This document shows positions 6,273-64,000 of a stretch of DNA of 64,000 nt, piece by piece. A program made the position numbers and the translations under genes. The notes beneath the pieces are model-generated. The model was not told where the DNA came from. It saw only the letters and a list, made by a program, of their open reading frames with translations, and made no database searches. The DNA comes from Escherichia phage Ec_YwIITB1. Positions within the stretch are counted from its first letter, which is position 1, and every line of letters begins with the position of its first letter. Location of the stretch: the sequence record PQ356294.1; one strand, given 5' to 3'.

Positions 6273-6280
6273 TTGATTAT

Positions 6281-6294
6281 GGGGCTTCGGCCCC
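6281..6294 (+). other. GC hairpin with UUCG tetraloop directly after gene 18 stop
   Basis: GGGGCTTCGGCCCC. Confidence 0.4.
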
Positions 6295-6311
6295 TATTCT
6301 CGAGGAAACAA

Positions 6312-6929
6312 GTGATTATTTCTAAGTTTGTTAAAGTGAAAATTGTACCATCAAATTTTAAACATTATCAATCAAAGGGTTATAAATTAACACCTCTTGG
6401 AGCGGTTAAACATGGATTTAGGTATTATGAAATTGATGTTAAAGTTGAAGACATTAAAGGTAATACCGCGTATGTAAAATGCCGTTGCGATAAATGTGGA
6501 ATTGAATATAACCAACGCATTGGAAGAAACACTGATATTTGTCGTGATTGCCGTCATAAAGATAAAATGCGCAATAATTCATATGGTTCCGCGAATAAAG
6601 GAAAAACAGTAGAATGTATGCATGGCGTAAATCATCCAAGATGGAACCCAAATAAATCTGAAATGCGTGAATATATTTCATTGGTATATAAAGAAACTCG
6701 TAAGCATAAGAAAATTTGGTCAAAATGGCCAAATGCTGATAAAATAGGAGTGTGCGGTACAAAAGGTGCTTACCAACTTGATCATAAGGTATCTATCAAA
6801 TACGGTTTTGATAATTTAATTCCTGTTGAAATAATTGGCGGTATTAATAATTTAGAAATAATCACTTGGGAATCTAACCGAGAAAAATCAAAAAGAAATA
6901 GTGTAGATCTTTGGGATTTACTAGAATGA
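6312..6929 (+). CDS. HNH-family homing endonuclease (free-standing)
   Basis: ORF open from 6273 (TTG); likelier start GTG 6312 with GAGG 7 nt upstream; Cys cluster CRCDKCG...CRDCRH and H-N-H-like motif DHKVS...NLEIITWESNREKSKRN. Confidence 0.7.
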   Translation: MIISKFVKVKIVPSNFKHYQSKGYKLTPLGAVKHGFRYYEIDVKVEDIKGNTAYVKCRCDKCGIEYNQRIGRNTDICRDCRHKDKMRNNSYGSANKGKTVECMHGVNHPRWNPNKSEMREYISLVYKETRKHKKIWSKWPNADKIGVCGTKGAYQLDHKVSIKYGFDNLIPVEIIGGINNLEIITWESNREKSKRNSVDLWDLLE

Positions 6930-11346: not shown

Positions 11347-12908
11347 ATGACTATCAAAACTAAAGCTGAACTTTTGAACAAATGGAAGCCATTACTGGAA
11401 GGTGAAGGTTTACCGGAAATTGCTAATAGCAAACAAGCGATTATCGCTAAAATCTTTGAAAACCAGGAAAAAGATTTCCAGACAGCTCCAGAGTACAAAG
11501 ACGAAAAAATCGCCCAGGCGTTCGGTTCTTTCTTAACAGAAGCTGAAATCGGTGGTGACCACGGTTACAACGCTACTAACATTGCTGCTGGTCAGACTTC
11601 TGGCGCAGTAACTCAGATTGGCCCAGCTGTTATGGGTATGGTACGTCGTGCTATTCCTAACCTGATTGCTTTCGATATTTGCGGTGTTCAGCCGATGAAT
11701 AGCCCGACTGGCCAGGTATTTGCACTGCGTGCAGTATATGGTAAAGACCCAATCGCTGCTGATGCTAAAGAAGCATTCCACCCAATGTATGGTCCAGATG
11801 CAATGTTCTCTGGTCAGGGTGCTGCTAAGAAATTCGCGCTAGCACACAAACTACTGTAAGTTGGAACCATTTACACCTATTTCTTCCAGGAAACTGGTAC
11901 TGTATATCTGCAAGCTACCTCTAGTTAAAGCAAATTGATACAAGTGCTTCTGACGCAGCTAAATTAGATGCTGAAATTAAGAAACAAATGGAAGCTGGCG
12001 TATTGGTAGAAATCGCTGAAGGTATGGCTACTTCTATCGCTGAACTTCAGGAAGGTTTCAACGGTTCTACCGATAACCCATGGAATGAAATGGGATTCCG
12101 TATCGATAAACAAGTTATCGAAGCTAAATCTCGTCAGCTGAAAGCTGCTTACTCTATCGAATTAGCACAAGACCTCCGCGCTGTTCACGGTATGGATGCT
12201 GATGCTGAACTGTCTGGTATTCTGGCTACCGAAATCATGCTGGAAATCAACCGTGAAGTTGTTGATTGGATTAACTACTCAGCTCAGGTTGGTAAATCTG
12301 GTATGACCCTGACTCCGGGTTCTAAAGCTGGTGTATTTGACTTCCAGGATCCGATTGATATTCGCGGTGCTCGCTGGGCAGGTGAATCCTTTAAAGCTCT
12401 GTTGTTCCAGATTGACAAAGAAGCAGTTGAAATTGCTCGTCAGACCGGTCGTGGTGAAGGTAACTTCATTATCGCTTCCCGTAACGTAGTTAACGTTCTG
12501 GCTTCAGTTGATACTGGCATTTCTTATGCTGCACAGGGTCTGGCTACCGGCTTTAACACTGATACTACCAAGTCAGTATTTGCTGGTGTTCTGGGTGGTA
12601 AATACCGTGTATACATCGACCAGTATGCTAAACAGGATTATTTCACTGTAGGTTATAAAGGTCCGAACGAAATGGATGCTGGTATTTACTACGCTCCATA
12701 TGTAGCTCTGACTCCGCTGCGTGGTTCCGATCCGAAGAACTTCCAACCGGTAATGGGATTCAAAACTCGTTACGGTATCGGTATCAACCCATTTGCAGAA
12801 TCCGCTGCTCAGGCTCCGGCTTCTCGCATCCAAAGCGGTATGCCTTCTATTCTTAATAGCCTTGGTAAAAACGCTTACTTCCGCCGTGTATATGTTAAAG
12901 GTATCTAA
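11347..12908 (+). CDS. 23: major capsid protein gp23; reading frame interrupted between ~11836 and ~11930
   Basis: 170-aa ORF 11347-11859 matches gp23 N-terminus, 306-aa ORF 11988-12908 matches C-terminus; in-frame stops at 11857 and 11926 with three frame changes between. Confidence 0.85.
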
Positions 12909-14305: not shown

Positions 14306-15310
14306 TTAACTTACCAATTCAATCCAAGCCGGACGAAGTACATCTTGTACCATTTTAACTAATTCCTTCTTAATCAAAGAAGGATTATCCGCTTGAGTTA
14401 GAGTAATACCTTCACGAGAAGTTTCTTCCAAAATATCTTGAACCGTTAGCCCCATCACCTTTCCAAAATCTTTTGGACCAATTTCACCAATTTTAGAAAT
14501 AACGTTATTTACTCGGTTCAGTGTAACGTAACAAGCTAAAATTCCAAGCAATTTATTATCAGCTTCTGACAGTTCAACTTTAGCTTTAATAGGCTTATCA
14601 GACTTTTTCTTTTCACTAAATTTAGAGTTCTTGCATTTGATAGCTACGCGATTGCCGTTATGCATCCAAGAAGGATAACAAGGTTTCAATACATATCCTT
14701 CAGCGGTAAATACTTCGCCTTTTACTTCAGCATTCCAAACGCATTTATTTGCATCAACTAATCCAGCATGGTCTACCGTAAAATTATAATCCTGGACGAC
14801 AGAATCTAAATCATTTGGCAATTTAATAAGTTCTTCAAATTTACCGCGACCTAAAAGTGGAGCCATTTTAAATTTAAATGTATTACAGAATGATTCCATC
14901 ATATAATCATCGACATAAGTCACATCACCACTTTCTGTAGTAACAATAATGTCAAATACATAAAAATCTTTATCGCCATAATCGACATTCTTCTGAATGC
15001 CAGGTCCAGCGAATTCGCCAAAAACTTGATAAGATACAACCGCTGAAGTTTCCATAATTTCTTGTACTGCTTTAATGGAATCAGAGTAATTCTTCAAAAT
15101 AATTTCATACCCAAAGAAATCTTCAGCAGGAAGAATAGGACCAGTACGTTTAGCGCAAGTTACTTTATCACGCTCAATAATCAATGAGAAATTTGTGCCG
15201 TGAATCTTTTCACGAGCTACCCACTCCCCACCAGTCAATCCCAAGCTATAAAGTTTTTCAATGAATTTAGAATTGTAATGATTTTCAAGACTGCTATACT
15301 TTTTAAACAT
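14306..15310 (-). CDS. rnlB: RNA ligase 2 (RnlB)
   Basis: 334-aa ORF; nucleotidyltransferase motif KIHGTN; T4 homolog. Confidence 0.9.
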
Positions 15311-15319
15311 AATTAATCC

Positions 15320-15598
15320 TCAAAATGTAATTTCTAACCAATCACCATCACGCTGATCACTATTGACTTTAAAGCTAAATCCTTCTTTTCTCAGCCAATC
15401 ACCAATTTCTTCAGTAATCAATTTATCACGAGCAGTACAATAATAACTAAAATATGTTTTACCTTGTTCAGCTGCTTTATTAGCAAGTTCCGAAAAATCT
15501 TTAATAAAACACTCTAACTTAAACTGTTTACTTTTAAGTGCTTTTTCACGTAATTGATTAGCAAAAGATTCATTTTCATAAAGATCATACTGTTCCAT
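15320..15598 (-). CDS. hypothetical protein (24.2-like position)
   Basis: 92-aa ORF in rnlB-hoc interval. Confidence 0.6.
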   Translation of the reverse strand: MEQYDLYENESFANQLREKALKSKQFKLECFIKDFSELANKAAEQGKTYFSYYCTARDKLITEEIGDWLRKEGFSFKVNSDQRDGDWLEITF

Positions 15599-15799: not shown

Positions 15800-15866
15800 G
15801 TTATCGAGTTGATGCCATTATATACATCATTTTCTGAGTATGTTTTGTGTGCTTTCAAAATGAAGA

Positions 15867-15884
15867 AAGGGGCCGAAGCCCCTT
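15867..15884 (-). terminator. hairpin downstream of hoc
   Basis: AAGGGGCCGAAGCCCCTT. Confidence 0.4.
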
Positions 15885-15894
15885 ATGATTATGA

Positions 15895-17324
15895 TTATGG
15901 ATAGGTATAGATGATACCAGTTTCTAAAGCAGTTTTATGAATGATGTATCCATTGCGTGATTCTTGAACATCAACTTCTGGATAGTCTTTCATCATCTTC
16001 TGAAGAGTGTAACGATGCAGGTAGTATTTACTGTCTGGATCTTCAGTTTTCCAATCTTTACCTTCTTCGGTCATTTTTTGGATTTCATCCATAACCCACC
16101 AGCCGCACCAGATATAAGCCGAAGTACGATGTGGAAGAGGATGAACATAAGGCAATTCACCTTCTGGTTCCGGAGCAACTTTATCAGTTACCTGAACTTG
16201 GCCTGTTGCTTTAACTGTTTTACTATCATAGTCGGTTGCTGTAACGACAGCAGTAACTTCAATAGTTTGACTTCCAATAGATGAGGTGTCAACGGTGTAT
16301 ACATTAGTTGACCCTTCTACAGGAGAAGAATCTTTCTTCCATGAATAAGTAATTTGAGCTGCTTCAGGTGCTCCGTGACATTAGCCGTAAATGTAGCCGA
16401 AGCATCTTGCTGAACGTTAATAGAAGGAGGAGTCAATGTAACCTGTGGATTCATTGTCTTCTTATTAACTGTCAATGATACTTCATTAGAAGTAACTTCC
16501 TTTGCATCATAATTTTCAGCCGTTACTTGGGCTACACACTTAACTGTTTTAGCTCCAACTGTGGTAGGAGTATAGTTAAATGTAGTAGTAGTTTCTCCAT
16601 CGACCAGAGAACCGTCAACATACCACTGATACGTAGCAGACGCTCCTGGTGGCTGTGAAGCCAAGGTAGCAGTAAATTGAACTGGGGTTCCAATAACTCC
16701 TGCTGGAGGATTAGCAGGAGTTACGGCTAACGTAGTTGTCTGTGTTTTCTTATTAACAGTCAGTGACACTTCATTAGAAGTAACTTCCTTTGCATCATAA
16801 TCTGTCGCGGTTACTTGAGCTACACACTTAATTGTTTTAACTCCGCTTGCGTCAGGAGTGTAATTGAATGTAGTGCCAGTTGCTTCGCCCACAGGAGAAC
16901 CGTCAACGTGCCATTGATACGTAGCGTTTGCACTTGGTGGCTGTGAAGCTAAGGCAGCGGTAAATTCAATTGGAGTTCCAATCACTCCAGCATCAGGGCT
17001 ACCAGGAGTTACAGCTAAAATAGTTGTTTGTGTCTTATTTTGAACCGTGATAGTTGTCGTAGTTTCTGCTGTTTCAGGTTCAGGTTCAGATTCAGATTCT
17101 GGAACTGTATTTGTTGCAACGACTTTAATAGTCTTTTGACCTGCAGGTCCTTTTAATACATAGCCAAAAGTTGCCGCTTCTCCATCTTGCGGAACATTAT
17201 CTACACTCCAAGCATAGGTAATAGTTCCATCTCCAGTTTCACCACTGGGTGTAGCAGTAAACTGCTTGGTTTCATCAATAACTCCTGTTGGGGTTTTAGG
17301 AGTTATATCAACTGTAAAAGTCAT
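15895..17324 (-). CDS. hoc: Hoc outer capsid protein with extra tandem Ig-like domain; frameshifted near 16371-16375
   Basis: 335-aa ORF 16317-17324 (starts MTFTVDITPKT) plus 86-aa ORF 15895-16155 matching the Hoc C-terminus (ends GIIYTYP); alternate frame between them reads the expected Hoc sequence. Confidence 0.85.
16464..17039 (-). repeat. tandem in-frame duplication (~288 bp unit) encoding two Ig-like domains within hoc
   Basis: Two consecutive ~96-aa blocks (ILAVTPGSPDAGVIGTPIEFTA... and TLAVTPANPPAGVIGTPVQFTA...) with matching DNA repeat; boundaries approximate. Confidence 0.7.
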
Positions 17325-17333
17325 AAGTTATCC

Positions 17334-18014
17334 TTATTTTAATGTTACGAAAGAAGAATTACGTGTTTCACGAATTAGAACTGATCCGTCGCGATTAATG
17401 TAATAAATTAAGCTAAATAAAGTTTGATGCGCAGACGCATGCTCAAAACTGGTTGGGCGAGATTTCCAATCTGGAGTTTCAGCAATCCATTGGTAAATCC
17501 ACCAAGGAACAGTGCAGAATCCTGGATTTTTTCCAATCAGCTGAAGATTCGGGCTAAAGTTTTCCGGAAGAGTAAATACAGACGGCTTTTCAGATTCAAT
17601 AATCTCAGCTACAGCCTGCTCGAATTTTTCTTCAACAAAAGGAGTATCTTCAATCAAAACATCGGTATTTTCAGGAATTTTATCCATTTCTACTACTTCA
17701 ATTTTAATGTCAGATTTAACCGGAGAATCAATCAGAAGTGCTGCCTCTGGATTGACTTCTTCATCGTCATATTTTAATCCGTCTGCGGCATCAGCAGCAT
17801 CAATTAAGTCTTTAATAGATAACCCATCAGTCTCTGGCATAGGTTCACTAGCGAGCTTCTGGAGGGCTTCTTCAATATCAACAACGATATTATCAAAAGA
17901 TTTATTCTTTTTGACTTTTATACCAAACTGTTCAGCATATTCAGCTAATTTAGCTTTAGCTTCTTTATTATCATCAAGAGCCTTCAGCTCTGCAATATAA
18001 TCTTTATCTATCAT
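17334..18014 (-). CDS. inh: Inh, inhibitor of prohead protease
   Basis: 226-aa ORF; T4 homolog. Confidence 0.85.
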   Translation of the reverse strand: MIDKDYIAELKALDDNKEAKAKLAEYAEQFGIKVKKNKSFDNIVVDIEEALQKLASEPMPETDGLSIKDLIDAADAADGLKYDDEEVNPEAALLIDSPVKSDIKIEVVEMDKIPENTDVLIEDTPFVEEKFEQAVAEIIESEKPSVFTLPENFSPNLQLIGKNPGFCTVPWWIYQWIAETPDWKSRPTSFEHASAHQTLFSLIYYINRDGSVLIRETRNSSFVTLK

Positions 18015-18064: not shown

Positions 18065-19576
18065 ATGACTGACATTAAAGTACATTTTTATGATTTTAGT
18101 CACGTGAGAATTGATTGTGAAGAAAGTACATTTCATGAACTCCGTGATTTCTTTAGCTTTGAAGCCGATGGGTATCGTTTTAATCCAAAGTACAGATATG
18201 GTAACTGGGATGGACGAATCCGTCTTTTAGATTATAATCGTCTTCTTCCATTCGGCTTAGTCGGGCAAATTAAAAAGTTCTGTGATAACTTTGGCTATAA
18301 AGCCTGGATTGACCCACAGATTAACGAAAAAGAAGAATTATCAAGAAAAGATTTTGATGAATGGCTTTCTAAATTAGAAATCTATTCAGGAAATAAAAGA
18401 ATTGAACCGCATTGGTATCAAAAAGATGCAGTGTTCGAAGGATTAGTTAATCGTCGTAGAATTCTTAATCTTCCAACATCCGCAGGTAAATCTTTAATTC
18501 AAGCTTTGCTTGCTCGATATTATTTGGAAAATTATGAAGGCAAAATTCTTATCATTGTTCCAACAACTGCTCTGACAACTCAGATGGCTGATGACTTTGT
18601 TGACTATCGTTTATTCAGTCATGCAATGATAAAGAAAATCGGCGGTGGAGCATCAAAAGATGATAAATATAAAAATGATGCACCAGTCGTTGTTGGTACA
18701 TGGCAAACTGTAGTAAAACAACCGAAAGAATGGTTCTCACAGTTTGGAATGATGATGAATGACGAATGCCATCTTGCTACAGGAAAAAGTATTTCATCTA
18801 TCATATCAGGTTTAAATAACTGTATGTTTAAATTTGGTTTATCTGGTTCATTGCGCGATGGCAAAGCCAATATCATGCAGTATGTTGGAATGTTTGGTGA
18901 AATATTTAAGCCAGTAACGACCTCTAAATTAATGGAAGATGGACAAGTAACTGAGTTAAAAATTAATAGTATTTTTCTTCGCTATCCCGATGAGTTCACT
19001 ACTAAATTAAAGGGAAAAACTTACCAAGAAGAAATAAAAATTATTACTGGACTCAGTAAAAGAAATAAATGGATCGCTAAATTAGCTATTAAGCTTGCAC
19101 AAAAAGATGAAAACGCTTTTGTCATGTTTAAACACGTATCACATGGTAAAGCTATTTTCGATTTAATTAAAAATGAATACGATAAAGTTTATTACGTATC
19201 AGGGGAAGTTGATACCGAAACCCGCAATGTAATGAAAACCTTAGCTGAAAACGGTAAAGGAATAATTATAGTAGCTAGTTATGGTGTATTTTCTACCGGT
19301 ATTTCAGTTAAAAATCTGCATCACGTTGTTTTAGCACACGGTGTTAAATCTAAAATTATTGTATTACAAACAATCGGTCGTGTATTACGTAAGCATGGTT
19401 CCAAAACAATCGCAACAGTCTGGGACCTCATAGATGATTGTGGTGTTAAACCAAAATCTGCTAATACGAAAAAGAAATACGTTCATTTGAACTATCTTTT
19501 AAAACACGGCATTGATCGTATTCAGCGCTACGCAGATGAAAAATTTAATTACGTAATGAAAACAGTTAATTTATAA
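18065..19576 (+). CDS. uvsW: UvsW helicase
   Basis: 503-aa ORF; T4 homolog; late promoter upstream. Confidence 0.95.
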   Translation: MTDIKVHFYDFSHVRIDCEESTFHELRDFFSFEADGYRFNPKYRYGNWDGRIRLLDYNRLLPFGLVGQIKKFCDNFGYKAWIDPQINEKEELSRKDFDEWLSKLEIYSGNKRIEPHWYQKDAVFEGLVNRRRILNLPTSAGKSLIQALLARYYLENYEGKILIIVPTTALTTQMADDFVDYRLFSHAMIKKIGGGASKDDKYKNDAPVVVGTWQTVVKQPKEWFSQFGMMMNDECHLATGKSISSIISGLNNCMFKFGLSGSLRDGKANIMQYVGMFGEIFKPVTTSKLMEDGQVTELKINSIFLRYPDEFTTKLKGKTYQEEIKIITGLSKRNKWIAKLAIKLAQKDENAFVMFKHVSHGKAIFDLIKNEYDKVYYVSGEVDTETRNVMKTLAENGKGIIIVASYGVFSTGISVKNLHHVVLAHGVKSKIIVLQTIGRVLRKHGSKTIATVWDLIDDCGVKPKSANTKKKYVHLNYLLKHGIDRIQRYADEKFNYVMKTVNL

Positions 19577-28178: not shown

Positions 28179-28182
28179 CAAT

Positions 28183-28204
28183 GGGGACCGGTCCCCATAT
28201 TTTT
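28183..28204 (+). terminator. intrinsic terminator after gene 54
   Basis: GGGGACCGGTCCCC followed by T-run. Confidence 0.55.
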
Positions 28205-45861: not shown

Positions 45862-47036
45862 TTAAAAATATTTTTTAAAACTCATCATAACTTTATCATC
45901 AACATCATTATCAATCTGTGCTACAAGATAAGATGACAGTTCTACTTCTTGCGGCGCGGATTGAACATTATCAGAATTAAGATATTCACGAATCCAAGGA
46001 TACGGGTGTTTAACCGGAGCATCGGTAATTGGGCATGGAAGACCACACTGTTTCATACGAGATACAGTTAAGTAATCAATAAAGTTCCACATGCTATTTG
46101 TATTTAATCCAGGAACATCGCCATCTTTAAATAAATGAACTGCCCAGTCTTTTTCTTGGCGGTTAACTTCCATGAAAATATCAACTGCTTCTTGTTCACA
46201 CTCTTGGGCGATTTTAACCCATTCATCACCATCAGTGCCAAGTTGAAGTTGACGAATAATATATTGGGTGCCTTTAAGGTGAAGCTGTTCATCACGTGCA
46301 ATGAACTTCATAATCTTGGCATTACCTTCCATGATTTCCATGTTTTTATGGAAGTTAAAGGTACATGCGAAAGATACGTAAAAACGAATAGCTTCCAGTG
46401 CGTTGATTACATGCAGACAAAGGTAAAGAGAACGCATTAGTTCACGTTTCCAATACATTTCATGCTCTATGGCATCTTTAATATCATCTTCGTCTGCGTT
46501 AATTTCTTTTTGGTACTCAATATCAGCTTTAGCATTCTGCCACGAGTTTTCTCAATAACATCATCATAGTAACGACCAATAGATTCAGCACGTTTCATGA
46601 TAGCTTTATCTAATACAATCTCATCAAATACTTTTGACGGATCAGTATAAAGATTCCGCATGATATGAGTGTATGAACGACTGTGAATAGTTTCGCTAAA
46701 AGTCCATGTAGCAACCCATGTATCAAGGCTTGGGTCTGAAATTAACGACATAAGTACAGCAGACGGTGCACGACCCTGAATGCTATCCAAAAGTGATTGA
46801 TACTTCAGGTTATTAGTAAAAATATCTTGCTGATACTGAGGAAGCTTGTTAAATTGTGCAGCATCCATCATCAAGTTTACTTCTTCAGGACGCCAGAAAA
46901 ATGACAACTGCTTTTCGGTTAAATCTTCAAAAACTTTATGGCGTTGAATATCATAACGCGCAATACCAAGACCTGAACCGAAGAACATAGGTTCTTTTAA
47001 AACATCAACTGGATTTGTATTAAAAACTGTGCTCAT
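45862..47036 (-). CDS. nrdB: ribonucleotide reductase small subunit NrdB, intron-less; frameshifted near 46539-46546
   Basis: 189-aa ORF 46467-47036 (N-terminus) and 198-aa ORF 45862-46458 (C-terminus) in different frames, 8 nt apart; alternate frame reads through the junction. Confidence 0.85.
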
Positions 47037-47087
47037 AAATTTTCCGCTTAGTTAATAGATAGTGACTCATCCGTGAGTCAAATTATA

Positions 47088-49352
47088 TCATAATTTACAG
47101 GATGAACAATCTTCAGCTTTTGGAGTTTCTATTTCATAATCATCAGTACCAGAACCGTCACGGGTATTATGATAATAGAAATTTTTTCCGCCAAAATACC
47201 AAAAATACAAAAGGTCATCAATCATTATTGACATTGGAACCTTTCCTTTTGGAAAAATCTGCGGGTCATAATATGTATTCGCTGAAGCTGATTGACACAC
47301 CCATTTCAGCATAATAGCTACTTGCGTAAGATAAGGTTTATTGCCTTTCTTAGCTAATTTCCATGTATAATCATAGAGGTCTATGTTGTGCTCAATATTG
47401 GGCACGACTTGATTAAAGGAGCCCTCTTTTGATTCTTTAACAGAGACTGGTCCACGTGGAGGCTCGATACCGTTTGTACTGTTAGAAACTTGGGAAGATG
47501 ACTCACATGGCATAAGTGCTGATAATGTGCTATTACGGATGCCAAAGAGCTTAAGGTCTTCCCGCAGCGACGACCAGTCACAAACGTATTTTGGAGCTGC
47601 GATTTGGTCAATCTTTTTATTGTACCAGTCGATAGGTAATTCGCCTCGAGACCAACGAGTGTCTGAATAATATTCGCAAGGTCCTTTTTCTTTGGCGAGC
47701 TTAATGGATGCTTTAATGAGTCCATACTGTAGTCTCTCAAATAGTTCATGTGTTAAATCGTTAGCATCTTCATAAGAAGCAAAATTACTTGCCAGCCAAG
47801 CTGCATAGTTAGTAACACCTACGCCAAGGTTTCGACGTTTTTTAGCTTTTTCTGCTTCAGGAACTGGATATCCTTGGTAATCCAAAAGATTATCAAGAGC
47901 ACGAACTTGGACTTCTGCCAATTCATTAATTTTATCTTGGTCTTGCCAATCGAAGTTATCTAACACAAATGCAGATAACGTACACAATCCAATTTCAGCA
48001 TCAGGACTATTCACATCATTTGTTGGAATAGCAATTTCACAACACAAGTTGCTCTGACGAATAGGTGCCTTTTCACGAATAAACGGAGTATAGTTATTCG
48101 TATTATCTATGAACTGTACATAAATCCTTGCTGTTCCTGAGCGTTCAGTCATGAGCAATTCAAACAGTTCACGGGCTTTAATACGCTTTTTACGAATATT
48201 AGGGTCTTTTTCTGCAGCTTCATATAATTCACGGAAACGGTCTTGGTCTTTAAAATAAGAATAGTAAAGTTCGCCACCCATTTCATGCGGACTGAACAAA
48301 GTAATGTAATCATTCTTTCCAAATCGTTCCATCATCAAATCATTCAGCTGGACGCCATAATCCATATGACGGATACGGTTTTCTTCTACACCTTTGTTAT
48401 TTTTCAAAACGAGAAGATTTTCAACTTCCAAATGCCAAATAGGATAATAAGCAGTAGCAGCGCCGCCACGAATTCCACCCTGTGAGCATGATTTAACAGC
48501 AGTTTGAAAATGTTTCCAAAAAGGAATAACACCAGTATGACGTACTTCACCTGTGCCAATCTTAGAACCTTCGGCACGAATCATACCAACGTTAATACCA
48601 ATTCCAGCGCGTTTGGAGATATACTCAACAATTGAAGCGGAAGCCTTATTGATAGACTTTAATGAATCACCTGCCTCAATAACAACGCATGAACTAAACT
48701 GCCGAGTTGGAGTACGGCAACCAGCCATAATAGGGGTTGGCAGTGAAATCTGTCGAGTAGATACTGCTTCATAAAAACGAATAACGTGTTTTAATCTATC
48801 AACAGGTTCATCTTGATGCAATGCCATTCCAATAGTCATAAATGCAAACTGTGGAGTTTCATAAATTTGACCAGTGGTTTTATCTTTAACTAGATATTTT
48901 TCTTTTAATTGCATCGCCCCGGAATAAGTAAATTCCATATCCCGTTCGTGCTTAATTTTTGATTCTAAAAATGTAATTTCTTCTGCTGAATATTTTGACA
49001 ACAATTCAGGGTCGTATTTACCTTCATTTACACAGTAAGAAATATGGTCAATAAATGAACGTGGTTCATACTGCCCGTAAACATGCTTACGAAGAGCGAA
49101 CATTAAGCAGCGTGCAGCTACATATTGATAATCAGGCTCTTCAACTGAAATAGAATTCGCAGCAGCCTTAATTACAATGGTTTGAATGTCATCAGTTGTC
49201 ATTCCATCACGGAGATATGATTTAATATTTTCATATAATTCATAAGGATCTACAGATGTTCCTTCAGCTGCCCAAGATAAAACTTTAATAATTTTTTGTG
49301 GGTCAAAGCTCTGAGAAACACCACTACTTTTGATAACATTAATTAATTGCAT
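47088..49352 (-). CDS. nrdA: ribonucleotide reductase large subunit NrdA
   Basis: 754-aa ORF; T4 homolog. Confidence 0.95.
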   Translation of the reverse strand: MQLINVIKSSGVSQSFDPQKIIKVLSWAAEGTSVDPYELYENIKSYLRDGMTTDDIQTIVIKAAANSISVEEPDYQYVAARCLMFALRKHVYGQYEPRSFIDHISYCVNEGKYDPELLSKYSAEEITFLESKIKHERDMEFTYSGAMQLKEKYLVKDKTTGQIYETPQFAFMTIGMALHQDEPVDRLKHVIRFYEAVSTRQISLPTPIMAGCRTPTRQFSSCVVIEAGDSLKSINKASASIVEYISKRAGIGINVGMIRAEGSKIGTGEVRHTGVIPFWKHFQTAVKSCSQGGIRGGAATAYYPIWHLEVENLLVLKNNKGVEENRIRHMDYGVQLNDLMMERFGKNDYITLFSPHEMGGELYYSYFKDQDRFRELYEAAEKDPNIRKKRIKARELFELLMTERSGTARIYVQFIDNTNNYTPFIREKAPIRQSNLCCEIAIPTNDVNSPDAEIGLCTLSAFVLDNFDWQDQDKINELAEVQVRALDNLLDYQGYPVPEAEKAKKRRNLGVGVTNYAAWLASNFASYEDANDLTHELFERLQYGLIKASIKLAKEKGPCEYYSDTRWSRGELPIDWYNKKIDQIAAPKYVCDWSSLREDLKLFGIRNSTLSALMPCESSSQVSNSTNGIEPPRGPVSVKESKEGSFNQVVPNIEHNIDLYDYTWKLAKKGNKPYLTQVAIMLKWVCQSASANTYYDPQIFPKGKVPMSIMIDDLLYFWYFGGKNFYYHNTRDGSGTDDYEIETPKAEDCSSCKL

Positions 49353-50770: not shown

Positions 50771-51795
<1,025 letters not shown>

Positions 51796-52048: not shown

Positions 52049-52102
52049 TTTATTCTCCTTAGTTGATAGGGTAATAGTATCACACTACTACCCTTCTGTA
52101 AA

Positions 52103-52488
52103 CTACTTTTTGAAAGTTTTTCGCAAAAGTTCAATGATTTCATCTACATTGTTTTCATCAACAATGCAGTGAATTTTTGTTACGCCAGAAACCTTGTCTT
52201 CGACTTCATCTTCTTCGGAAGTCGGTTCTTTATACTCACGAAAACAATGAAATTCGTCTTCGCAAATTTCTAAAAGTCTATCTTTGAGGTAAAAATGCTT
52301 TCCGTTAGCGCACAAATGATTTCGGTTACATAATCAAAGCCATCTAAATTTGATATTGATTTAACTTCAAACCAACCACCATTTTCTTGAATGATGCCGA
52401 CCATATTAGTATTTGATGAACTAATATCAATGAAAGATTTAATACGATGTATCAATAAGTCTTGGAACAAGTTCATACTTTTTGCCAA
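52103..52488 (-). CDS. hypothetical protein (frd.3 position), frameshifted near 52302-52314
   Basis: 72-aa and 70-aa ORFs overlapping in different frames; together one ~128-aa product. Confidence 0.55.
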
Positions 52489-52539
52489 TATACATTACGT
52501 TTTCCTCATTTTAACGGGGCTGTAATAGCCCTTTGATAA

Positions 52540-52788
52540 TTATTGTTCAATCAGTCCCATGTAAAATTCTGCGTCTTCAGAATCCATGCCATCACAATAT
52601 TCATTAGCCATAAAGCGGGTGAGATCTTCAAGAGGACCTTCAATAATGATTTGAATACTCCAAAACTTAGAATCTTGCACGCTTGTGATACTAAGTTCAG
52701 GATAACGATTACGAATAATTTCTTCGAAATATTCGTAATCAATAACATCAATATCAACTTTAGCCATATTGTTTTCCTCTTTAATCAT
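52540..52788 (-). CDS. hypothetical acidic protein
   Basis: 82-aa ORF. Confidence 0.6.
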
Positions 52789-61241: not shown

Positions 61242-61913
61242 ATGGCTGATTTAAAAGTAGGTTCAACTGTGGGTGGATCTGTCATTTGGCATCAAGGAAA
61301 TTTTCCATTGAATTCAGCCGGTGACGATGTACTCTACAAATCATTTAAAATATATTCAGAATATAATAAACCGCAGGCAGTTGATAACGATTTCGTTTCT
61401 AAAGCTAATGGCGGTACGTATTTAAATAAAGTAATTTTTAATAAAGGAATGACTGTTCCCGGTGCAGGGTCAGCTGTAAACAATACAAACCAGTGCGGTA
61501 TTTATCCAGGTAATGGCGATGCAGCTACTTTTGCTACAGCAAATATTGATATTGTTTCATGGTATGGTATTGGTTTTAAATCATCACAGGGTTCAGCAGG
61601 TAGAACTGTAGTAATTAACACGCGAAATGGAGATATTAGCTCAAAGGGTGTAATTGAAGCATCACAAATACGCGCAACTTCATTATCTCCAGTAAATAAT
61701 TATGACCTTACACGGAAAGATTATGTCGATGGAGCAATAAATATTGTTACAGCAAACGCAAACTCTAGAGTTTTGCGTAAAGGTGACACCATGACAGGTA
61801 ACTTAACAGCACCAAACTTTTTCTCGCAGAATCCTGCGTCTCAACCCTCACACGTTCCGCGATTTGACCAAATCGTGATTAAGGATTCTGTTCAAGATTT
61901 CGGCTATTATTAA
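61242..61913 (+). CDS. 36: long tail fibre distal connector gp36
   Basis: 223-aa ORF; late promoter and terminator upstream. Confidence 0.9.
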   Translation: MADLKVGSTVGGSVIWHQGNFPLNSAGDDVLYKSFKIYSEYNKPQAVDNDFVSKANGGTYLNKVIFNKGMTVPGAGSAVNNTNQCGIYPGNGDAATFATANIDIVSWYGIGFKSSQGSAGRTVVINTRNGDISSKGVIEASQIRATSLSPVNNYDLTRKDYVDGAINIVTANANSRVLRKGDTMTGNLTAPNFFSQNPASQPSHVPRFDQIVIKDSVQDFGYY

Positions 61914-61921
61914 GAGGACTT

Positions 61922-64000
61922 ATGGCTACTTTAAAACAAATACAATTTAAAAGAAGCAAAATTGCAGGTCAGCACGTCCTGCTGCTTCAGTATTAGCCGA
62001 AGGTGAATTGGGTATTAATTTAAAAGACCGTGTACTTTTTACTAAAGATGACCAAGGAAATATTATTGATCTGGGTTTTGCTAAAGGCGGTAGCATTGAC
62101 GGGAATGTTATTCATATAGGAAACTATAATCAAACTGGTGATTATACTTTAAATGGCACCTTCACTCAGACAGGTAATTTTAATTTAATCGGTATTGCTC
62201 GAGTAACTCGCGATATTATTGCCGCCGGGCAGATTATGACCGAAGGCGGAGAACTTATTACAAAAAGTTCAGGTACATCACATGTTCGTTTTTTCGATAG
62301 CAATAGCCGCGAACGCGGAATCATTTATTCACCGGCTAATGATGGATTAACTACACAAGTACTTAATATCAGGGTTCAAGACTACGCCGCTGGTAGCGAA
62401 AGCACCTATGCATTTTCAGGCAATGGCTTATTTACTTCACCTGAAGTATCAGCATGGAAATCTATGTCAACTCCTCAGATTTTGACCAACAAAGTCATTA
62501 CTAATAATAAATCTACAGGTGATTATGACATTTATTCGATGGCAGATAATGTTCCACTGTCTGAAAGCACTACTGCTATTAATCATCTCCGTGTCATGCG
62601 TAATGCAGTCGGTTCTGGCATTTTCCATGAAGTTAAAGATAATGATGGAATAACTTGGTACAGCGGAGATGGGCTAGACGCTTATCTTTGGTCATTTACA
62701 TGGAGCGGCGGAATTAAATCGAGTCACTCAATTTCTATCGGTTTAACACCTGGCAATAAAGATTATTCAATACTAGGACCATCTAGTATTGCTTTAGGGG
62801 ATAATGATACTGGATTTAAATGGCACCAGGATGGATATTATTTCAGCGTCAATAATGGAACGAAAACATTTTTATTTAGTCCTAGCGAAACAACTAGCCT
62901 AAGAAAATTTGTAGCTGGATATTCTACTAACGGAACCGATTTAACTACTCCTCCTACTGAAAACTATGCTCTCGCTACTGTTGTTACATATCATGATAAT
63001 AACGCGTTTGGAGATGGTCAGACTCTTTTGGGATATTATCAAGGCGGTAATTATCATCATTATTTCCGCGGTAAGGGTACTACAAACATTAATACTCACG
63101 GCGGTTTGTTAGTTACTCCAGGTAATATTGATGTTATTGGCGGTTCTGTTAATATAGATGGTAGAAATAATTCTTCTACACTAATGTTTAGAGGTAACAC
63201 AACTGGTAGTAGTTCAGTTGATAATATGACAATTTCCGTATGGGGTAACACGTTTACTAATCCTAGTGTAGGTAATCGTAAAAATGTCATGGAAATTTCT
63301 GACGCAACTAGTTGGATGAGCTATATTCAAAGACTTACTACCGGTGAAGTAGAAATGAACGTTAACGGTTCATTTGAATCATCTGGTGTTACTGCTGGAA
63401 ATAGAGGAGTTCACACAACAGGTGAAATTTCATCTGGGGCCGTGAATGCGCTTCGCATTTGGAACGCAGATTATGGTGCCATTTTCCGTCGTTCAGAAAA
63501 CAGTCTTCATATTATTCCAACTGCCTATGGTGAAGGCAAAAATGGCGATATCGGTCCACTTCGTCCGTTTAGTATGTCTTTAGATACAGGTAAGGTTGTT
63601 ATTCCTGACCTAGATTTGAGTCATACAACTTTTGCTGAAAATGGTTTTATTAAATTCGGTGGGCATGGTGCTGGTGCCGGTGGTTATGATATTCAATACG
63701 TCCAAGCAGCTCCTGTTTTCCAAGAAATTGATGATGACGCGGTAAGTAAATATTATCCTATTGTTAAGCAGAAATTCTTACAAGGAAAAGCTGTTTGGTC
63801 TTTAGGCACTGAAATTAATTCCGGGACTTTTGTTTTACATCATTTAAAAGAAGATGGTTCACAAGGCCATACATCAAGATTTAATGCTGACGGTACAGTT
63901 AATTTCCCTGATAATGTTCAGGTTGGCGGTGGTGAAGCTACTATTGCTCGAAATGGTAATATCTGGTCTGATATTTGGAAATCGTTTACTTCAGCAGGAG
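61922..64000 (+). CDS. 37: long tail fibre distal subunit gp37, N-terminal ~690 codons (3' end outside window); frameshifted near 61967-61980
   Basis: ATG 61922 reads MATLKQIQFKRSKIAG then stops at 61994; frame -1 continues ARPAASVLAEGELGINLKD... open to window end. Confidence 0.85.

Follow-up and report, generated by a model that had tools for sequence, protein, structure and literature searches.

The DNA analysed here, called the window below, is a stretch of 64,000 nucleotides of the T4-like (Tequatrovirus) genome of Escherichia phage Ec_YwIITB1 (PQ356294.1), in which hoc lies on the minus strand within the gene order rnlB (14306-15310), two small ORFs, hoc, inh (17334-18014) and uvsW (18065-19576). 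This order is identical in seven other phage contigs, and hoc occupies the conserved position of Hoc genes, between inh and the 24.x/rnlB genes and opposite uvsW. As written, hoc (16317-17324, minus strand) starts at an ATG at 17324 and its reading frame, hereafter frame 0, runs to a TAG at 16319-16317, encoding 335 amino acids that comprise N-terminal Ig-like domains and an 18-residue out-of-frame tail and that end, in the ORF list, in ...FTANVTEHLKQLKLLIHGRKILLL. The tail (16317-16373, minus strand) reads EHLKQLKLLIHGRKILLL followed by the stop in frame 0 and GAPEAAQITYSWKKDSSPV in the -1 frame, which confirms what the first-pass annotation had reported, namely that the ORF ends at 16317 with an unrelated tail. 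The -1 frame opens immediately behind a TAA near 16381, and from 16371 onwards it provides about 158-159 codons, from GAPEAAQITYSWKKDSSPVEGS... to ...GIIYTYP, closed by a TAA at 15897-15895 (15895-16371, minus strand). The peptide encoded from 16371 in this frame begins with APEAAQITYSWKKDSSPVEGS..., and GAPEAAQITYSWK with what follows it would belong to Hoc if the frame is restored. The gene as written hence does not form a single uninterrupted frame leading from the Ig-like string to the capsid-binding domain, frame 0 stopping at 16317. On its 3′ side, direct reading also reveals a terminator-like hairpin (15857-15882, minus strand; GGGGC-TTCG-GCCCC, then a T-rich run), and phage G29 has an annotated terminator at the corresponding position.

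Both parts of the gene are recognizable as Hoc. The 335-aa ORF matches phrog_1149, 'Hoc-like head decoration' (E 5e-76), gives the Pfam matches PKD (E 3.5e-7) and BiPBP_C (E 4.5e-8) expected of the N-terminal Ig-like string, and is 83% identical to residues 1-328 of the Hoc protein of phage U115. The part in the -1 frame, a highly conserved capsid-binding domain as judged by profile, identity and codon differences, shares 96.9% identity with U115 Hoc 315-473 over 159 residues (E about 1e-101) and matches positions 994-1150 of the 1150 of phrog_1149, i.e., its last 157 positions (E 1e-70), as well as phrog_21694; these matches bear out the earlier claim that the -1 frame carries Hoc on to its C-terminus at 15895. 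Since the matches of the two pieces follow one another along the Hoc profile and the second piece is so nearly identical to its U115 counterpart, a frame break in hoc is supported far beyond chance. [quoted passage not shown]

After repair, the gene is a typical Hoc gene and falls into the class with four Ig domains (472-476 aa). Its nearest proteins are 88-92% identical, the identity to full-length Hoc proteins of 472 aa from E. coli and Shigella phages being 88-91%, and this size class is common among the Tequatroviruses of these hosts, beside classes of 283, 376 and 568 aa. Canonical lengths (376-379, 468-472 or 567-570 aa) are found in 118 of the 120 best Hoc clusters of a collection of 5.8 billion proteins; disrupted hoc genes are rare, about 1-2%, and some such cases may themselves be errors. 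The 65-aa protein encoded next to hoc is common to eight long phage contigs and one short contig, and in the seven of these contigs in which hoc is in view the gene is uninterrupted and encodes 283, 376 or 472 aa. Two further features lie in the Ig-like part of the window gene. There is an internal repeat (16456-16760 versus 16743-17048), whose identity to the adjacent domain in relatives is 77-80%, and a 12-nt in-frame expansion of a hexamer repeat at 17079-17090, which yields an ESESEPEPE linker, is absent from the relatives aligned. The stretch 16456-17048 holds an extra tandem Ig-like domain, with copies that are about 78-80% identical at the DNA level. Exact look-up of the truncated Hoc protein showed that it is not on record, and the same look-up with Inh likewise gave no match; no exact DNA match to the deleted 30-mer or to the ESESEPEPE insert was found in IMG/VR, and a gapped pattern for either hoc allele was absent from IMG/VR, from JGI metagenomes and from GTDB genomes.

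The break was located with a DNA alignment of the window hoc and five Tequatrovirus relatives (Killian, sb4, U115, G29 and LF73P3), in which the only single-base indel of the window gene is a 1-nt gap at coding-strand ACGGA-GCACC. Pairwise alignments with sb1 and U115 place this gap at 16374-16375, within a break site (16371-16375, minus strand; coding ACG GA/G CA, the slash marking the gap) at which every relative examined has one more base. Plus-strand positions 16371-16375 read C T C C G, and the coding-strand GG thus lies at 16374-16373. The allele as written is ACGGAGCA and the base-restored version is ACGGGAGCA. When the repaired version of the site (99 nt) was searched against 50,697 phage records, the base was missing in none of the 499 matching records, the best of which was 97% identical. 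With the gap in the five-relative alignment, this result shows that the first-pass annotation had placed the missing base correctly, at plus-strand 16371-16375.

Regarding the identity of the missing base, relatives carry ACG GGA, ACT GGA, ACG GGT, ACT GAT or ACG GAT at the site, that is, a codon for Gly (GGA or GGT) or for Asp (GAT), for example within ACT GGA GCA CCT, ACG GGT GCT CCA or ACT/ACG GAT GCT CCA. The window bases downstream of the gap, GCA CCT GAA GCA, match the haplotype of the Gly/GGA type, and the three differences from the nearest haplotype of this type (GTC/GTT, ACG/ACT and GCT/GCA) are all synonymous and in the third position. Loss of a G is favoured over loss of a T because the downstream bases are of the Gly type and the three nearby differences are synonymous, and the most economical reading would be that a G was lost from a GGG run, the ancestor having been ACG GGA GCA. 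The initial proposal of a G lost from GGG hence stands as regards the single missing base and gains from the Gly haplotype, its identity as a G being favoured rather than fixed since loss of the T of a GAT codon is formally possible from the sequence. Insertion of either G or T at the gap gives a gene of 1431 nt that encodes a 476-aa Hoc and has no internal stop. With its three bases, the GGG run is a weak homopolymer and a weak hotspot for slippage or miscalling.

Past the break, 159 codons follow with no stop and no decay, and they differ from the three relatives compared by 3-6 amino-acid changes against 9-21 changes that are synonymous only. So few amino-acid differences beside so many synonymous ones imply that selection acted on the downstream frame until essentially the present. 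An established and decaying pseudogene was thus rejected, the gene showing no further disabling mutation, a signature of purifying selection and a lesion that is found in 0 of 499 relatives. If the missing base is real, the allele would have to be very recent, a genuine hoc-null arisen by replication slippage in GGG with loss of one G. Such an event is plausible in kind, the deletion lying within a short mononucleotide run, Hoc being non-essential in the laboratory and bearing its capsid-binding domain at the C-terminus (PMC10385173), and the spontaneous mutant HAP1 being viable without Hoc on its capsid (PMC10580926); hoc is also broken, at other sites, in G29 and BYEP02. We nevertheless hold a genuine null to be unlikely, given a downstream part without decay or relaxed selection, an allele that occurs in no other sequence searched and a hoc gene of canonical length in about 98% of the clusters listed.

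Were the null allele real, its soluble product of 335 aa would be made up of three whole Ig-like domains, some 30 residues of the fourth domain and the 18-residue nonsense tail. This product would be devoid of the capsid-binding domain, so that no Hoc would be expected on the gp23 hexamers, as suggested by the location of this domain (PMC10385173) and by the precedent of HAP1. That a natural Tequatrovirus isolate has just lost its capsid-attached Hoc and releases a free 335-aa Ig-like fragment at lysis appears to us quite doubtful. If true, it would parallel in nature what HAP1 shows in the laboratory and might affect mucus adherence and immunogenicity, and it would be relevant to phage-mucus adherence and to the immunogenicity of phage therapy, while still being a simple loss-of-function allele for which HAP1 is the precedent.

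The two frames could also be joined at the ribosome, the missing base being real and compensated by a -1 slip before the TAG at 16319-16317, for instance on AGA AAG at about 16334. One A_AAG site (about 16334) does lie inside the 60-nt interval in which the frame could be restored, but this 60-nt overlap contains no X XXY YYZ heptamer, and the RNA fold is unremarkable (MFE -31.2 kcal/mol, z = -1.36; an equal or better fold is reached by 15 of 200 shuffled sequences). Moreover, the two-frame arrangement exists in no relative, all of them being single-frame, and the replaced residues would fall in, and damage, a strand of the last Ig-like domain. We consider such a slip, which would yield an amount of full-length Hoc carrying up to 14 replaced residues, extremely improbable. 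Programmed -1 frameshifting of hoc was rejected, the gene offering no heptamer, no notable structure and no conservation.

The window was scanned for other frame breaks by comparing U115 stop-to-stop segments of at least 70 codons with it by tblastn. U115, which is cleanly annotated, was used as reference and sb1, the closest relative, was dropped, being itself full of split genes. Three genes besides hoc change frame with respect to U115, namely gene 23, nrdB and frd, and the scan of the window found no other real gene with a frame change or a nonsense codon. A frame switch at 61868-62109 turned out to be only the gp36/gp37 junction, and the in-frame stops seen in many tblastn matches fall in off-frame or antisense segments or upstream of starts, outside genes. 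In the homologue of U115_249 (window 52050-52600), a divergent protein with 72-75% identity, an apparent frame change is seen near 52300-52315; judging by the sequence, this gene may be broken by a real lesion or may simply reflect natural variation.

Gene 23, coding for the major capsid protein (11347-12908, plus strand), is broken into two ORFs, one of 170 aa (11347-11859) and one of 306 aa (11988-12908), which match positions 2-127 and 152-443 of the 444 of phrog_138. A patch at 11837-11930 passes from frame 0 to frame 2, back to frame 0 and again to frame 2, i.e., three changes in about 100 nt with two in-frame stops, and along this path it reads GAAKKFA in frame 0, ASTQTTV in frame 2, VGTIYTYFFQETGTVYLQAT in frame 0 and KQIDTSASDAAKLD... 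in frame 2. The patch is 4 nt shorter than in all the relatives compared (T-01, PYps32T, U115 and sb1). Translational bypassing or an intron was rejected, as the 'gap' between the ORFs consists of homologous coding sequence read in other frames, and the window falls short of its relatives in length instead of exceeding them. The frame-break scan of the window revealed no second gp23 gene, and T4-like phages are not known to carry one. The gene nrdB (45862-47036, minus strand) is present as ORFs of 189 and 198 aa, with a 4-nt deletion at about 46542 (coding CGT[TATT]GG, the missing bases in brackets), and restoring the 4 nt gives a 392-aa ORF. Likewise, the dihydrofolate reductase gene frd (50973-51550, minus strand) is present as ORFs of 122 and 100 aa, with a clean 4-nt deletion at about 51226 (coding AATT[TCTG]GTTC), the rest being almost identical to phage EPIMAM01.

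Losses of 4 nt are over-represented, with four in the window (nrdB, frd, a hairpin and a divergent patch near 52297) against one in U115. The hairpin concerned, a GC-rich one at about 28180-28200, has a loop that lacks 4 nt (28189) relative to U115, which turns GGGGACCTTTCGGTCCCC into GGGGACCGGTCCCC, a loopless palindrome. No motif common to the 4-nt deletions (TCTG; TATT/TTAT; CTTT/TTTC) was found by eye. Other differences from U115 were seen along the way. The window has no gene between nrdA and nrdB (47036-47088), where U115 has a putative homing endonuclease (14791-15522 of the U115 piece compared). It also lacks 44 nt (about 37823) and 21 nt (about 38228) relative to U115 in a region of small early genes, absences that may be natural variation. 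Conversely, U115 lacks a 218-aa ORF that the window has at 6273-6929, between the genes for tail sheath and tail tube; in sb1 this position is taken by a hypothetical CDS. The window ORF matches phrog_5104, of unknown function (E 2e-89), and a Pfam search with it gave no match; its C-terminus looks HNH endonuclease-like by eye, and it may be a free-standing mobile gene.

The state of gene 23 has a direct bearing on hoc. Deletion of gp23 is lethal (PMC10580926). Since gene 23 is unreadable in the window and loss of gp23 is lethal, the sequence demonstrably contains errors, and no viable phage could have precisely this sequence. At least four genes are broken in 64 kb (hoc, gene 23, nrdB and frd), and among them only gp23 strictly proves an error because nrdB and frd, like hoc, are non-essential in the laboratory. 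A break in gene 23 that is incompatible with viability, together with broken nrdB and frd in the same sequence, is what is expected of an artefact, and the hoc break is the less trustworthy because of an unreadable gene 23 and two more broken genes in the window. The same findings weigh against a genuine null, whereas the -1 type of the hoc lesion, which differs from the -4 lesions elsewhere, speaks for it. In numbers, about 6 frame-breaking events per 64 kb would give about 0.13 events expected in a gene of 1.43 kb, to be compared with a frequency of hoc genes of odd length of about 1-2%. Altogether, the hoc frame break is most probably a sequencing or assembly artefact and not a property of the phage.

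Under this artefact explanation, a single base would have been dropped in basecalling, consensus building or assembly, presumably by the same error process as at the other breaks in the window; most probably it was a G of the ACG GGA stretch. Candidate processes would be homopolymer undercalling, poor basecalling of glucosyl-hydroxymethylcytosine and consensus building over mixed haplotypes; the heavily modified cytosines of T-even-type DNA are documented to degrade nanopore basecalling (PMC12838424). Against an artefact, it may be argued that a -1 event in a short G run is unlike the -4 events of nrdB and frd and the scrambled gp23 patch, so that the cause need not be common to all, and that on most platforms three consecutive G do not make a strong hotspot for miscalls. 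The first-pass annotation had considered a real null allele and a homopolymer miscall as both plausible. Both are possible, and it is the breaks in gp23, nrdB and frd that tip the balance towards error; the label 'homopolymer miscall' as such is not established, the run being only three bases long and the other breaks of the window being of a non-homopolymer type. The latter suggests that the error process may be more general, such as a poor consensus, basecalling of modified bases or mixed haplotypes.

One specific version of the artefact explanation holds that the window is a chimeric consensus of at least two co-occurring Tequatrovirus haplotypes, from a mixed lysate or a metagenome, which were spliced out of register. 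The gp23 patch would fit this description, as it joins an sb1-type stretch (GCTAGCACACAAACTACTGTA) and a U115/T-01-type stretch (AAGTTGGAAC.ATTTACACC) out of register; the former also resembles T4. At hoc, the bases ACGGA followed by GCACCT could similarly be written as an Asp-type ACGGAT joined to a Gly-type GGAGCACCT at the common GGA, but an overlap of 3 nt is too short to serve as an argument, and the three differences beside the site, being synonymous throughout, are what a single natural haplotype would show. The deletions in frd and nrdB, moreover, sit in stretches that otherwise match one haplotype almost perfectly. We regard a chimeric origin as rather unlikely. Whichever process was at work, gene calls and 'pseudogene' inferences made from this genome are not to be trusted until it has been re-polished or re-sequenced, and the hoc break is no new biological feature.

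Finally, the window hoc may be set beside known systems. The gene resembles the Hoc of T4 and other Tequatroviruses (PHROG 1149) by its genomic position, its Ig/PKD-like domains and its C-terminal capsid-binding domain; T4 Hoc has 376 aa and three Ig domains, whereas the Hoc of the window belongs to the four-Ig class and is split by the missing base. The nearest functional precedent is T4 HAP1 (T4 delta-Hoc), which carries a spontaneous hoc nonsense mutation (C496T, an ochre codon at 44% of the protein) and is viable with no Hoc on its capsid (PMC10580926). As in HAP1, termination in the window occurs upstream of the capsid-binding domain, and a viable phage with a Hoc-less capsid would be expected if the break were real. 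HAP1, however, is a verified substitution in a laboratory strain, whereas the window has a putative 1-nt deletion at 67% of the protein, beside an unreadable gene 23. A search of the literature for natural hoc frameshift alleles found none and returned only laboratory mutants. Among deposited genomes, vB_EcoM_G29 (MK327940) has hoc in two pieces owing to a 55-nt insertion, and in BYEP02 the Hoc frame is lost within the C-terminal domain, after HRTSAYI. Like the window, both have a split or truncated hoc in an otherwise ordinary Tequatrovirus genome, but neither has the deletion at 16374. More generally, frame-broken genes are common in deposited Tequatrovirus genomes, which also speaks for an error in the window. 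Over a stretch of 22.6 kb the window is 95-97% identical to many phages of E. coli, Shigella and Yersinia and 96.9% identical to its closest overall relative, Shigella phage sb1 (PQ666539), in which the terminase gene is split into three pieces and those for sheath, gp23, gp27, gp48 and rnlA into two each; compared with sb1, breaks are fewer in the window (four or five in 64 kb) and lie at different positions.
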